From positions 2,136 through 66,135 of the forward strand of contig QEXY01000163.1 of the NCBI GenBank assembly GCA_003130875.1: DNA of 64,000 nt, read 5' to 3'. This DNA comes from Ardenticatenia bacterium. GTDB lineage: Bacteria; Chloroflexota; Anaerolineae; 4572-78; NAK82. The notes below the pieces were generated by a model that saw only the letters and a program-made list of their open reading frames with translations, ran no database searches and was not told the origin of the DNA. The first letter of the stretch is position 1, and every line of letters starts with the position of its first letter. Of the stretch, positions 39,005 through 44,224 are shown in pieces. A program made the translations under genes and the position numbers.

Positions 39005-39910
39005 TCATAGTCCAGGCAACAAGTAGGCGTAGGCACTCAGCGCAGCTTTGACGCCGCCCCCTGCCGCCACCAGAATCTGCTCCATATAGGTGTTCGTGAC
39101 GTCGCCTGCGGCACAGATGCCGGGCACATTGGTGCGCCCGCGCTCGTCAATGCGGATATGCCCGCTCGGATCCACGTCCACCAGACCCACCACCGGCTGC
39201 GAATTGGGGATCACCGCGATTTCGACGAAGAACACCCCAGCCGCGATTTCCATCTGCGACCCGTCCGGCGCGCTGACCACAATACGACGTGCATACTCGT
39301 CGCCCTGCATCTCCAGCACCTGGTAATTCTCCAGGATGGTGACGTTCTGGGCCTTCTTCAACTTGATCCCCAGGGGGCTATCCAGTACGTGAGGTTCCAC
39401 CCCCACCAGATAGACCTGGCGCGCCGTCAGGGCGATTTCCGCCGCCGCACGCACGGCGAGCTGGCCGTTGCCGATGATTGCCACCACGCGGTCGCTCATA
39501 TGCGGTGCATAGCGCAAGGCAGAGTAGCTCAGGCCGCGCATCAGGTATTTCTCTTCGCCGGGCACGTGCATGCGCTGATGTTTTACCCCGGTGGCCATGA
39601 TGACCGCCTTGCCCAAGAGCACCGCCTTCTCTTGGGTATGCACCGCAAAGCCGTCGCGATGGCGGCTTACCCGCACAGCATAGTCCTTATAGTGCGTGAA
39701 GTCCAGGCGCTCCAGCTCCGTCTTGAGCCCTTCGATTATCTCCTGTCCTTCCAGAACGATGGGGGTCTCCTCGGGCGGCAATTGCATTCGATAGTTGGTC
39801 TTGCCCCCTAGCGTCTTAGAGACGAGCAACACCTTCAGGCGCCGTCGCGCTGCGTAGATTGTCGCGGTGATGCCGGCCAGCCCACCGCCCACCACAATCA
39901 GGTCATACAT
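39005..39910 (-). CDS. TrxB/AhpF-fold FAD-dependent NAD(P)H oxidoreductase lacking the redox CxxC
   Basis: GGGLAG, ATG, GNGQLA and TNVPGICAAGDVT. The CxxC position reads GLSYSALRYAP. Confidence 0.88.
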   Translation of the reverse strand: MYDLIVVGGGLAGITATIYAARRRLKVLLVSKTLGGKTNYRMQLPPEETPIVLEGQEIIEGLKTELERLDFTHYKDYAVRVSRHRDGFAVHTQEKAVLLGKAVIMATGVKHQRMHVPGEEKYLMRGLSYSALRYAPHMSDRVVAIIGNGQLAVRAAAEIALTARQVYLVGVEPHVLDSPLGIKLKKAQNVTILENYQVLEMQGDEYARRIVVSAPDGSQMEIAAGVFFVEIAVIPNSQPVVGLVDVDPSGHIRIDERGRTNVPGICAAGDVTNTYMEQILVAAGGGVKAALSAYAYLLPGL

Positions 39911-39947: not shown

Positions 39948-40868
39948 CTAGACGCGCAGATAGGAGTCGGTATAGATGACCTGATTATACAGGATCTGCG
40001 CCGTCTTGAACAATGCGACCTGATCCGGATCGCTCATATCCACATCCTCGGCGGTCAGGCGTTCACCGGCCGCGGTCTTGTCATACAGCTTGAGCACCAA
40101 ACGGCCCAACGCAGTGCTGTCGTCGCGTTGGGTGATGATACGGATGAACTCGTTCTGCTGCTGGTCCAAAGGGTTGGCGATCACATAGTCCAGCCCCACC
40201 GCCATCAGCATCACCAGGTAAGTGCGGTTGATCAGCGGCCGCATCTCGTTCGGCACCGCGTTCGACACATTGCTGAGCCCGGCATTGGTCATAGGGGGCG
40301 GGTCACCCGCTAGCTTGAGCAGGCGGATTGCCTCGATGCACTCCGGGCAGTACTCCTGACAGCCGCTGACGGTCAGCACCAGCGGGTCGATCAGCAGGTC
40401 TTCCATCGGGATGCCCAGCTCGACAGCGCGCGGGATGAGATATTCCAGGGCGATGTTGACGCGCTCCTCGGCACTCACCGGAATGCCCGACTTTCCCATG
40501 GTGAGGGCGATGAGCTTGGCGTTGTACTTCTTGGCCAGCGGTGGCACCGTGGCGAGGCGCTCTTCTTCCGCCGAAGTGGAGTTGATGATGCATTGATGCT
40601 TGGCCACCTTCAGCCCTTCCTCGATAGCGGCCAGATTGGTGGTGTCCAAAACCAGAGGCACATCCACCACTTCCTGAATACCCTTCACCAGCCACGGCAT
40701 GATCTCGTGGCCAGCCTTCTTCTGCGGGCCGATGTTCAGGTCGAGATAGTGTGCCCCCGCTTCCACCTGTTTGAGCGCCAGCTCCTGGAAGAAGCGGATG
40801 TTCTTCTCGGCCAGAGCCTCTTTGACCCGTGGCGAGATAATATGAATGTTCTCACCTATGATATACAT
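39948..40868 (-). CDS. acsE: Methyl-THF:corrinoid Fe-S protein methyltransferase
   Basis: IIGENIH, LDLNIG, LDTTN, IINS, LLIDP and GLSNVS. Position in the acs operon supports the call. Confidence 0.93.
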   Translation of the reverse strand: MYIIGENIHIISPRVKEALAEKNIRFFQELALKQVEAGAHYLDLNIGPQKKAGHEIMPWLVKGIQEVVDVPLVLDTTNLAAIEEGLKVAKHQCIINSTSAEEERLATVPPLAKKYNAKLIALTMGKSGIPVSAEERVNIALEYLIPRAVELGIPMEDLLIDPLVLTVSGCQEYCPECIEAIRLLKLAGDPPPMTNAGLSNVSNAVPNEMRPLINRTYLVMLMAVGLDYVIANPLDQQQNEFIRIITQRDDSTALGRLVLKLYDKTAAGERLTAEDVDMSDPDQVALFKTAQILYNQVIYTDSYLRV

Positions 40869-42854
40869 CTAACTTCCTCCTTGAACAGAACGGGATATGG
40901 GATTGTTTCGGCGCGCCGCCAAAACTTCCGCCACAGATGGGAAATGCGCCAGATCGGTATGCGGCAGGAACAACGCCGAGGTGAACGCTTCGTAAAATGA
41001 GTTATCCGCTGAGAGCTCCAGGTAAGTCATCTTCTGGGCGATGGTGGTCAAATGATGGCGGAACTCGCGATGGAGCAACGCCAACAGCGCACCCTTCAGG
41101 GCGGTGTTGCCCAAAAAGTGGAATTTCTCCCACGGCAGGTCAGGCAACAGCCCGATCTGGATGGCCTTTTCCACGTTGATATATTGACCGAATGACCCAC
41201 CCACAAGCACCCGTTCCACTGTGGACAGGTCAGTGCCTACGCTGCGGGCCATCACTGTGAAACCGGCGTAAATGGCAGCCTTGGCGCGGATGAGGTTGTC
41301 GATATCCACCTTGGTGATAGCGATGTCGCGCCCATGCGCTGTCTCGCTGCCCCACGCCACGACATATTCCGGCCCGTGCTCGCCGCGGCGGATGCGCGGG
41401 GAGCCCATGTCAAAGTTGAGATTGCCCGCCTTGTCGATCACGCCCGTGATGAACATCTCGGCGAGCAGGGAAATCAGCCCCGAGCCGCAGATACCCCGCG
41501 GCGGAGTCGGCTGGCCTTGCGCTTCCAGCTTGGGATCGGGGATCACACGATAGGTCGGCTCGTAGGTCTGGCTGTTGATCCAGACCTCCTCGATGGCGCC
41601 TACTGTCGCACGCATGCCATCGCGCACCCCGGCGCCTTCGAAGGCGGGACCCGCCGAACAGGCACAGCTGACAAGCCAGTCGCAGTCGCCCAGCACCATC
41701 TCACCGTTGGTGCCGATGTCCAGGAAGAGCGCCACCGTCTTGCTCTCGCACATCTGCGAGCCGAGGATGCCCGCCGGGATATCGGCACCGACATAGCTGG
41801 CCACGCCGGGCAGACAATCGACATGCGCCTGCGGATGAATGGCGATGCCGAGCTCGGCGGCCTGCACCGGCGGCGGCTGGTTGATCGTGGTGATAAACGG
41901 CTCGAGGCGGATCGAATTAGCAGGCAATCCCAGCAACAGGTGGATCATGGTGCTGTTACCTGCCACGGTCATCTTGTAGACCTCGCTGGGGCGGATGCCG
42001 GCGCGCCCGCAAGCACGTTCGAGAATCTGGTTGATGGTATCCACCACCAGTGCCTGCATCTCCTGGAGATTGCCGTTGCGACTTGCGTAGATAATGCGCG
42101 AGATGACGTCCTCGCCGCGCTTGATCTGGGCGTTGTATTCCGCCGCCTGTGCGGCGATCTCACCGCTGAGCAGATCCACCAGGTAGAGGCTCACCGTAGT
42201 CGTGCCCACGTCCACCGCCGCGCCCCAGAGATGGTTCGTAGCGTGTCCAGGCACCACGTCCACCAGGCGCGGCGGCCCCTGCGGCCGATCCCAGGTGTCC
42301 AGTTCCACCACCGCTGTGACCATCCAGTTCGCCTCGCGCAGCGTAGTGCCCAGCTTGCGCAGCGTCGGCAGGTCGATGGTCAGCTCGGAGATGCCATGCT
42401 GGAGTGCCATAGCGCGCTTCAAGCGCGACCAATCATCCGTCTGGTCGTCCATCGAGGGCGGATCGAGCGTCAGCGCCATCAACTGCATGGGCTGATGCTG
42501 CTTGGGGTCATAGACAAACGGCAGGGTGACCTTCGTCGCGATGCGGTCCGTGACCAGACGGCGCTCGATGCGCTCCTGTGGGGGAATGGTGACCGTGACA
42601 TCTCCTTCGAGCACCGTCTGGCAAGCCAGGACATAGCCGGCGGCGCGGTCCTCCTGGCTGAGGCGCAGCTCCGAACGGCTGCGCACCGCCTGCCGATTGT
42701 CCACGAGCACGGCGCAGCGTCCGCAACGTCCCTGGCCGCCACATGGGATGTTCAAGTCCAGCCCTGCCTGGCGCACTGCCTCGACGATCAGCGTGCCAGT
42801 AGGCACCTCGACCGTTTTTCCAGAAGGCTCGAAACGTACCCGGTGGGTCGCGAT
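40869..42854 (-). CDS. acsV: Reductive activator of CFeSP (RACo/AcsV, 2Fe-2S + ASKHA DUF4445); 5' end extended to an ATC codon
   Basis: CGGQGRCGRC, DVGTT, DIGTNGE, GPAFEG and GICGSG. The frame upstream of GTG 42806 encodes xATHRVRFEPSGKTVE, which belongs to the ferredoxin-like domain. GGAGG RBS precedes ATC at 42854. Confidence 0.9.
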   Translation of the reverse strand: MATHRVRFEPSGKTVEVPTGTLIVEAVRQAGLDLNIPCGGQGRCGRCAVLVDNRQAVRSRSELRLSQEDRAAGYVLACQTVLEGDVTVTIPPQERIERRLVTDRIATKVTLPFVYDPKQHQPMQLMALTLDPPSMDDQTDDWSRLKRAMALQHGISELTIDLPTLRKLGTTLREANWMVTAVVELDTWDRPQGPPRLVDVVPGHATNHLWGAAVDVGTTTVSLYLVDLLSGEIAAQAAEYNAQIKRGEDVISRIIYASRNGNLQEMQALVVDTINQILERACGRAGIRPSEVYKMTVAGNSTMIHLLLGLPANSIRLEPFITTINQPPPVQAAELGIAIHPQAHVDCLPGVASYVGADIPAGILGSQMCESKTVALFLDIGTNGEMVLGDCDWLVSCACSAGPAFEGAGVRDGMRATVGAIEEVWINSQTYEPTYRVIPDPKLEAQGQPTPPRGICGSGLISLLAEMFITGVIDKAGNLNFDMGSPRIRRGEHGPEYVVAWGSETAHGRDIAITKVDIDNLIRAKAAIYAGFTVMARSVGTDLSTVERVLVGGSFGQYINVEKAIQIGLLPDLPWEKFHFLGNTALKGALLALLHREFRHHLTTIAQKMTYLELSADNSFYEAFTSALFLPHTDLAHFPSVAEVLAARRNNPISRSVQGGS

Positions 42855-42877
42855 GGTTCCCTTACCTCCTCAGGCGC

Positions 42878-44224
42878 TCATCCCCAGCGCGTCTTCAGGT
42901 AGTTGGGCAAGTCCACTGCCTCACGCGGCCCGACGTTGATCTCCCAGCCGGGCAGCTCCTCCTCGATCTCACCCAGCAACACGGCAACATGGCCAGGGAT
43001 GATAAGACGCTTATGGTTGATCTTCTGCTCGATGCCGGTGCTCTTCACCGTCTTGGCGATGCGCTCCGCGTCGAATTTGCCAGCCGCCCAGGCAGTCAAC
43101 ACGCTCATCCCCTCCGCGTCCGCCACCAACAGCCAGCCCGGCAGGCCGCTGCTCTCCACCTCGTTCGCCACCGAGAAGTATGTGATCGAGAAATTGGTGG
43201 TGATCATCAGCGGGTCGGATGGACCGGGATGGTTGATCTCGTAGACACCGGGCAAGACTTGGATGGGCTTCTGCGGATCGGTGAAGAGATTGGCGCGCAA
43301 CACGATGAGTGGATAGGCCATGGCTGGGTCGAACTGATCGAGCACGATGAAACCGGCGTACTTGGCGATGTGTTGTGCGGCGAGGGTGATGTCATCACCG
43401 GCAAAGGCGATCAGCGGATAGCCCACCTTGCGCTCATTTTTCCTGAGCGCCAGCCGCCGCAGCTGGGTAAACGCTGCCAGGCTGCTGGCATGGTCGCGCG
43501 TGCCGGGATCGAGCACCAGATCTTCCACGCCGGCGTTCTTCACCTGCTCGGCCAGATCGGCCAGGGCGTTGAGGTCGCCGTTCGGTCCCAGCACCGCTAG
43601 AGGCACCTTATACTGCGCCGCCAGCTGGGCCATCGCCTGCCAGTTCTCCGCACTGGCAGCCCACAAGAGCGGCGTCGTGCCCTGCGCCGCTTTCAAACCC
43701 GCCTCAGCCGTCGCGGGGTCGGTGGCCATAAGGATGAGAGGGAAAGGACACGCCGCTTTGACCGCAGCCACGGTCGCTCCGAAGTCACCGCCAGCAGCCT
43801 CCACCGCCACGCCGTCCAGGCTCAACGACATCCCCACGTAGTCCACAGTGTAATCGGCCACTGCCTTGGCCACCTGTGCGGCGTCGGGCTGGGTGTCCTT
43901 GACGCGCACGAACAGCCCCGGCGGGTGATAGAAGGTCTTCTCATGGCGATGGAGCACCAGCTCGTTGCCGACTTCCAGCTTCTTGGCGCTGCCAGCGACA
44001 GTGATCAGCCGGATCGGCGGCGCGGCGGACTCCTCCAGCTGGCGCTTGGATTCTTCTTCCACATAAGGACACAATGACAGATCTGCCTGCTTGGCAGCCA
44101 ATTTCATCGCAAAGGCGAGACAGGTGGGATACCCACACTCCTTGCAATTGGCGTGGGCCTTGACTTCCGGATTCGTGCTGCTGGCCGGTAACAGCTTATA
44201 GATTTGCAGGCCGGTGAGAGCCAT
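42878..44224 (-). CDS. acsC: Corrinoid Fe-S protein large (gamma) subunit
   Basis: MALTGLQIYKLLP...NCKECGYPTCLAFAMKLA...CP, TTNFSITY and GMSVLTAWAAGKF. Confidence 0.97.
   Translation of the reverse strand: MALTGLQIYKLLPASSTNPEVKAHANCKECGYPTCLAFAMKLAAKQADLSLCPYVEEESKRQLEESAAPPIRLITVAGSAKKLEVGNELVLHRHEKTFYHPPGLFVRVKDTQPDAAQVAKAVADYTVDYVGMSLSLDGVAVEAAGGDFGATVAAVKAACPFPLILMATDPATAEAGLKAAQGTTPLLWAASAENWQAMAQLAAQYKVPLAVLGPNGDLNALADLAEQVKNAGVEDLVLDPGTRDHASSLAAFTQLRRLALRKNERKVGYPLIAFAGDDITLAAQHIAKYAGFIVLDQFDPAMAYPLIVLRANLFTDPQKPIQVLPGVYEINHPGPSDPLMITTNFSITYFSVANEVESSGLPGWLLVADAEGMSVLTAWAAGKFDAERIAKTVKSTGIEQKINHKRLIIPGHVAVLLGEIEEELPGWEINVGPREAVDLPNYLKTRWG

Follow-up and report, generated by a model that had tools for sequence, protein, structure and literature searches.

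AUH codons (AUA, AUC and AUU) are the class of start codon that initiation factor 3 (IF3) discriminates against. The infC gene begins with AUU in Escherichia coli, with ATC in Streptomyces and with ATA in Deinococcus-Thermus, and infC-type starts are routinely mis-annotated (PMC5472188). IF3 represses non-canonical starts such as that of infC and the GTC start of Streptomyces sigR, which keeps SigR below its partner RsrA (PMC5472188). In E. coli, near-cognate AUC initiates at ~1-2% of the level of AUG, with Met at the N-terminus (10.1101/063800), and the AUU start of pcnB limits the synthesis of poly(A) polymerase and keeps the enzyme scarce (cited in 10.1101/063800 and PMC2830850). The ATC start of Deinococcus dnaA was proven by N-terminal TMPP proteomics (PMC2830850). 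Here, we investigated the start of acsV, the gene of the reductive activator RACo, in a 64,000-nt stretch of DNA from an Ardenticatenia bacterium (the window; contig QEXY01000163.1, positions 2,136 to 66,135). An earlier annotation made from the letters alone (the sequence-only reading) had proposed that this gene begins at a non-canonical ATC. Our analysis indicates that acsV translation probably starts at AUC 42854-42852 on the minus strand (probability about 0.87), and the proposal was borne out by homology, conservation, the substitution pattern and a confident structure model.

We examined the start region on the minus strand. The acsC gene ends in ...CGC TGG GGA TGA, with its stop codon at 42880-42878, and is followed by gcgcc, a TGA at 42872-42870 that closes the acsV frame, the Shine-Dalgarno (SD) motif GGAGG at 42869-42865, the 10-nt spacer taagggaacc and the ATC at 42854-42852, whose C is base 42852. 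The 15 codons after ATC (42851-42807) read GCG ACC CAC CGG GTA CGT TTC GAG CCT TCT GGA AAA ACG GTC GAG and lead to GTG 42806-42804, so that the 16 codons from ATC up to this GTG translate as I-ATHRVRFEPSGKTVE. No ATG, GTG or TTG occurs in the acsV frame of the window between the in-frame TGA and GTG 42806. The sequence-only reading had described the same in-frame stop before GGAGG and the same lack of a canonical start, and its coordinates proved exact when re-read. As re-annotated, acsV spans 40869-42854 on the minus strand (661 codons, from ATC 42854 to the stop TAG at 40871-40869). This arrangement resembles that of infC, in which a conserved AUH codon stands behind a good SD without a canonical alternative, while the remaining genes of the operon all use ATG preceded by an SD of the GGAGG type. 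The mRNA around the acsV start did not fold more stably than shuffled sequence (z +0.63), and the region matched no Rfam family.

The protein read from ATC is a complete RACo. The 661-residue product contains the Pfam domains Fer2 (PF00111, residues 9-82), RACo_linker (PF17650), Raco_middle (PF17651) and RACo_C_ter (PF14574), all above their cut-offs, with a plant-type 2Fe-2S domain at the N-terminus and an ASKHA ATPase domain at the C-terminus. It matched the crystallised RACo of Carboxydothermus hydrogenoformans (3ZYY) with an E-value of 2.9e-156 over query residues 2-641 and chain residues 2-630. Query residue 2 is aligned with chain residue 2, and the ATC therefore sits at the first residue of 3ZYY. 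Like the C. hydrogenoformans protein (3ZYY, 4C1N), the window protein has four domains and matches over the full length, with the N-terminus aligned residue for residue from position 2; unlike it, it has ATC where C. hydrogenoformans has a normal Met, differs at ~45% of residues and carries a C-terminal tail of ~20 residues. The 2Fe-2S ligands C38, C44, C47 and C78 are invariant among 35 aligned orthologues. Homology thus identifies acsV as RACo, the ATP-dependent reductive activator of the corrinoid iron-sulfur protein (CoFeSP), with a Co(II)-to-Co(I) activity predicted from the same homology. The gene lies in a Wood-Ljungdahl operon with the order HTH-HMA regulator, cooS/acsA, acsB, CBS, acsD, acsC, acsV, acsE, a thioredoxin reductase (TrxR)-like flavoprotein gene, metVF and cooC.

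To assess what the 16 N-terminal residues contribute, we used an AlphaFold (AF2) model built from the 35-sequence alignment, with a predicted local distance difference test score (pLDDT) of 91.3. The model placed β1 at residues 3-9, β2 at residues 14-18 and the first helix at residues 23-29. The sequence-only reading had taken the skipped codons to form the first strand of the 2Fe-2S domain. β1 is indeed encoded there, but most of β2 is encoded there as well, and a protein beginning at residue 17 would consequently lack the N-terminal β1-β2 hairpin of the β-grasp 2Fe-2S domain.

Comparison of 11 orthologues located the onset of coding evolution. Pairwise synonymous and nonsynonymous differences stood at 23:382 in codons -8 to -1, which is a non-coding pattern, and at 333:257 in codons +1 to +15, which is indistinguishable from the 116:79 of codons +16 to +21. 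The switch from a non-coding to a coding substitution pattern is exactly at the ATC. This codon is also the only invariant one over 30 codons in the 11 orthologues, although fourfold-degenerate sites are saturated (3/134 invariant). In an alignment of 35 N-termini, column 1 is I (ATC) in the clade of the window and M (ATG) in the other clade, and H4 and F8, both 5' of the GTG, are nearly invariant. The claim that the 16 codons left out of the public record are translated is upheld by this coding pattern, by H4 and F8 and by the structure model.

The start region is shared widely among relatives. The combination of ATC, SD and an in-frame stop a few codons 5' recurs in all remaining genomes of the genus and extends to several further genera of the family, at 63-96% protein identity. 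In-frame stops lie 1-11 codons 5' of ATC in most orthologues of the clade, and the ATC start is conserved in more than 18 independent assemblies. NCBI itself annotates the ATC start in several sister metagenome-assembled genomes (MAGs) (MATHRVRFEPAGQ... and MAVHKIRFEPSG...), one of which was confirmed as atc at the DNA level. The source genome is a MAG in 195 contigs whose closest public relatives are MAGs of Anaerolineae (Chloroflexota).

We next placed the start codons on a phylogeny. A further 80 Anaerolineae loci (given L labels) were collected, and a maximum-likelihood tree was built from 78 full-length RACo proteins; acsC lies 5' and acsE 3' of acsV in most of the 80 loci. The tree showed two well-supported clades, A (34 sequences, including the window) and B (44 sequences). 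In clade B, all 44 sequences start with ATG (MAEH..., MAQH...), aligned exactly to the ATC of the window. Of the 34 in clade A, 19 carry ATC or ATT as the aligned start codon; a canonical alternative is lacking in 13 of these 19 and lies nearby in the other 6. Besides the window, loci without a canonical alternative to ATC include L039, L048, L033, L037, L035, L034, L056 and L100. Four of the 13 form a subclade (L054, L068, L083 and L090) whose ATT or ATC lies two codons further 3' than usual. In these four loci (positions ~1036, 1970, 1991 and 1865, respectively), the N-terminus reads xPIYTVTF, the start lies 9-10 nt after AAGGAG or GGAGG, and neither acsC upstream nor acsE downstream is present. 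The subclade appears to represent a second placement of the AUH start in the RACo family. An N-terminal extension was considered for L083 and L090, which have a long in-frame upstream open reading frame (ORF), but its translation is not protein-like and this candidate was rejected. Changes between AUH and canonical starts number at least 5-7 on the RACo tree, all within clade A.

One locus of this set was irregular. In L015 / L040 (CP070811.1, G008:C1:3653898-3655922, a single-contig MAG), the acsV match is split into two overlapping parts, residues 1-151 and 138-649, which suggests an assembly frameshift or a disrupted gene. In the same locus, a GTG directly follows an in-frame TGA, 12 codons 5' of the ATC.

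These data bear on the other ways of reading the start. In the public record, the protein of the source genome has 645 residues and begins at GTG 42806; the protein collection searched does not contain the 661-residue form. If the record were right, the 16 codons would be an untranslated leader and the ferredoxin domain would be shortened at its N-terminus. This GTG is indeed the first canonical start in the frame, but no SD stands before it (the sequence there is aaaacggtcgag), and its position reads GCT, GCC or GTC in 6 of 11 close orthologues, so that it cannot be the start of the family. In addition, the 15 codons 5' of it evolve as coding sequence and hold the nearly invariant H4 and F8, and a GTG start would delete β1 and β2 of a confidently modelled domain. 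We therefore consider the GTG start very improbable and read this codon as the internal Val17 codon. The ATC-started form would be distinguished by the tryptic peptides VRFEPSGK and TVEVPTGTLIVEAVR, and the GTG-started form by the N-terminus MPTGTL. A sequencing or assembly error at base 42852, with ATG as the true codon, was also considered, since the source genome is a MAG in many contigs. The identical ATC in the remaining genomes of the genus, in several additional genera and in more MAGs that unrelated studies produced excludes a base-calling or assembly error for practical purposes; the sequence-only reading had named the start codons of orthologues as a check, and the shared ATC and SD answered it. 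Fusion of AcsC and RACo by readthrough or frameshifting was discarded: orthologues differ in both frame relation and gap, and an extra in-frame stop lies between the two genes.

Several observations weigh against initiation at the AUC. ATC accounts for 82% of the Ile codons across the operon, and 4 of 16 conserved Ile columns show ATC throughout, which makes invariance of the start ATC weak evidence by itself. In some lineages translation may begin elsewhere than at ATC, since a canonical codon stands in frame close to it in six clade A genomes (L036, L040, L042, L052, L053 and L093). The source sequence, moreover, is a MAG of an uncultured organism. Initiation at AUC 42854-42852 nevertheless remains our reading at the probability given above.

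We then assessed whether start codon and SD are related. An SD-like motif 4-11 nt upstream was sought in 75 acsV orthologues, 16 with an AUH start and 59 with a canonical start (ATG or GTG). The motif was present in 15/16 acsV genes with AUC or AUU starts and in 5/59 with canonical starts (clade A 3/15, clade B 2/44). In the same loci, acsE has ATG with an SD in 61/64, indicating that SD use is general in these organisms. Fisher tests gave 1e-10 for AUH-start versus canonical-start acsV and 4e-25 for canonical-start acsV versus acsE, with sequences that are not independent of one another. At face value, a strong start codon and an SD appear almost never to be combined in acsV, unlike in its neighbours. 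The pattern newly seen here is that acsV has either ATG or GTG without an SD, or AUC or AUU with one. The leaders of clade B loci such as L069, L074, L088 and L094 (30 nt before position 2001) are pyrimidine-rich, repetitive and SD-free, for example ccacttcccactatccacttcccactaaaa, and are perhaps weak, or dependent on S1 or standby binding. The adjoining acsE of clade B (Anaerolineales) loci retains a normal SD.

In the mechanism we propose, GGAGG 10 nt upstream would position the 30S subunit at AUC 42854-42852, and fMet-tRNAfMet would pair with AUC despite the mismatch at the third position. The product would be the 661-residue protein with a complete N-terminal 2Fe-2S domain, from which the initiator Met is probably removed before Ala2. 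RACo would then be made at a much lower rate than acsC, acsE and the other neighbours with ATG and SD on the same mRNA, and the purpose may be to keep a repair factor sub-stoichiometric to CoFeSP. RACo is catalytic and spends ATP to re-reduce Co(II)-CoFeSP, which makes a low RACo:CoFeSP ratio plausible. The either/or pattern of start codon and SD fits selection for low RACo translation, and we put the odds at roughly even that the function of the weak start is to restrict RACo synthesis.

Two points tell against such tuning. The SD and start-codon data contain only 3-5 phylogenetically independent contrasts; none runs in the opposite direction, but with so few the sign test cannot reach significance. 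Weak output and IF3 sensitivity of the acsV AUC, moreover, are expected by analogy from values obtained in E. coli and Streptomyces, which may differ from those of Anaerolineae with their variant initiator tRNA (described below). The AUC could instead be a tolerated, effectively neutral relic, in which a change from ATG to ATC was fixed since the need for RACo is tiny and a strong SD suffices. The 5-7 flips between AUH and canonical states within one clade, the GC-biased codon usage that favours ATC and the shortage of independent contrasts all agree with this. On the other hand, ATC has been kept while fourfold sites are saturated, one subclade exchanged it for another AUY codon two codons downstream rather than for ATG, and an SD is rare before canonical-start acsV but regular before the neighbouring acsE (5/59 versus 61/64), a difference that points to a constraint on total initiation strength. 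We consider a neutral relic rather unlikely.

Another possibility is that most initiation at the AUC comes from ribosomes that have just finished acsC, by termination-reinitiation or 70S scanning, so that RACo would be a fixed small fraction of AcsC and not the outcome of separate 30S initiation policed by IF3. The two genes are co-oriented in one operon, separated by 23 nt in the window and by 12-34 nt in seven ATC lineages, and re-initiation in E. coli is reported to have its own initiator tRNA and IF3 requirements (PMC2268962). However, gaps among ATC lineages extend over 12-110 nt, with 82-110 nt in some that include two genomes of the same genus, which argues against obligatory termination-reinitiation. 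The frame relation of acsC and acsV also varies, the ATT/ATC subclade has no acsC upstream at all, and a full SD with proper spacing is kept in 15/16 loci, as de novo initiation predicts. Coupling to acsC termination is accordingly improbable. A wider reading joins the observations: RACo would be selected for weak initiation through two designs that can stand in for each other (either ATG lacking an SD, or AUC/AUU joined to a strong one), acsV of the AUC lineages would share the IF3-policed codon class of infC, the two genes would form a minimal set sensed by IF3 in the source genome, and CoFeSP re-reduction would rise when IF3 is limiting. We offer this reading tentatively and judge it unlikely as a whole. 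If true, IF3-limiting states such as slow growth or translational stress would raise the capacity to re-reduce oxidised CoFeSP, and repair of the Wood-Ljungdahl methyl branch would be coupled to the state of the translation apparatus.

To determine how rare such starts are in the source genome, we screened for AUH codons with an SD and a coding-like leader (by codon-usage score) and no canonical start within ten codons. The screen left two convincing AUH starts, acsV and infC. Three other matches were rejected: C13:13357 was dismissed as a shadow ORF, C62:9659 encodes an alcohol dehydrogenase in which an internal Met is plausible, and C151:18818 is the known frameshift of prfB. Two RACo paralogues elsewhere in the genome start at ATG. 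Genome-wide, no SD enrichment was seen before ATC in ORF leaders with a motif pattern that missed overlapping motifs, that of acsV included.

The infC gene (G000:C2:9576-10085, minus strand, outside the window) starts at ATC, preceded by AAGGAGGAG and, 10 codons 5', by an in-frame TGA; it has no canonical start. Its start is ATC in relatives of the same genus, ATT in other genera of the family and ATA in other families. This is the classical IF3-type start arrangement, and infC of the source genome is probably truncated or mis-annotated by gene finders. The ribosomes of this lineage thus live with an essential AUC-initiated gene, and infC and acsV share the same ATC codon. The initiator tRNA (G000:C71:29458-29529, outside the window) has a U1-U72 mismatch, A11:U24 and the anticodon stem CCAGG/CCTGG, in which A29:U41 replaces the first of three conserved G:C pairs. 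This au/GC/GC variant also occurs in alpha-proteobacteria and some mycoplasmas (PMC5389676). It was found in nearly all sampled genomes of the order (L142-L170), while the classical GGG/CCC form was found in G009. A special initiator tRNA was rejected as the cause of the ATC, because au/GC/GC is common to the whole order, including lineages with ATG-start acsV, and so does not explain the acsV start. The 3' end of 16S rRNA, which carries the anti-SD, is not present in the MAG.

With this start, acsV joins an established class of conserved near-cognate AUH starts with an SD that gene finders overlook, represented by infC, pcnB, dnaA and sigR, and does not represent a new principle. It differs from infC in encoding a metabolic repair ATPase and not a codon-policing factor, so that no autoregulatory loop arises, and IF3 control of acsV would be by analogy. 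The pcnB gene is the precedent for a scarce enzyme, with another codon (AUU versus AUC) in another gene and lineage, and its limitation was established by experiment whereas that of acsV is inferred. Deinococcus dnaA likewise has an ATC start that is conserved in its lineage and was noticed through heterogeneous N-termini arising from canonical-start annotations; its start was proven by mass spectrometry, whereas that of acsV is deduced from comparison. In sigR, as proposed for acsV, a non-canonical start sets the ratio to a partner (SigR:RsrA and RACo:CoFeSP), but sigR is a regulator gene with a GTC codon and genetic proof, while the ratio for acsV is a proposal. Our literature search found no paper on a non-canonical start of RACo or acsV.

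The assignment has consequences for the public record. The deposited protein of the source genome and those of several cluster mates lack the first 16 residues, that is, two strands of the electron-input 2Fe-2S domain, and models, alignments and expression constructs derived from the record would therefore be defective. The gene adds a metabolic, non-housekeeping member to the short list of genes whose AUC start is deeply conserved. A comparative hint that RACo translation is held low relative to the abundant subunits of carbon monoxide dehydrogenase/acetyl-CoA synthase (CODH/ACS) and CoFeSP encoded on the same mRNA comes from the either/or pattern of start codon and SD. For heterologous engineering of the Wood-Ljungdahl pathway, the result suggests keeping RACo expression far lower than that of its partners. 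Of most use among the by-products are the correction of the truncated protein and this pattern, which could be tested with simple reporters.

The genes beside acsV were also examined. Upstream, acsC (42878-44224, minus strand), which encodes the large subunit of CoFeSP, starts at ATG with an SD, contains the Pfam domains FeS and CdhD, and ends 23 nt before the ATC. Downstream, the methyltransferase gene acsE (39948-40868, minus strand) begins with an ATG that abuts the acsV stop TAG with a gap of 0 (window 40866-40871). The final acsV codons contain the acsE SD, AAGGAGGAAG, so that acsE can initiate independently despite the expected low translation of acsV. Outside the window, the release factor 2 (RF2) frame of prfB (G000:C151 around 18818, minus strand) lacks an independent start and has an N-terminal region reading ...DFWNDQRAAQ..., which fits the usual programmed +1 frameshift in RF2. 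Further along the operon, the longest ORF of metVF starts at GTG 39036, shares 32 nt with the 3' end of the TrxR-like gene (window 39005-39036) and has no SD, and the true metVF start is probably further downstream than this GTG.

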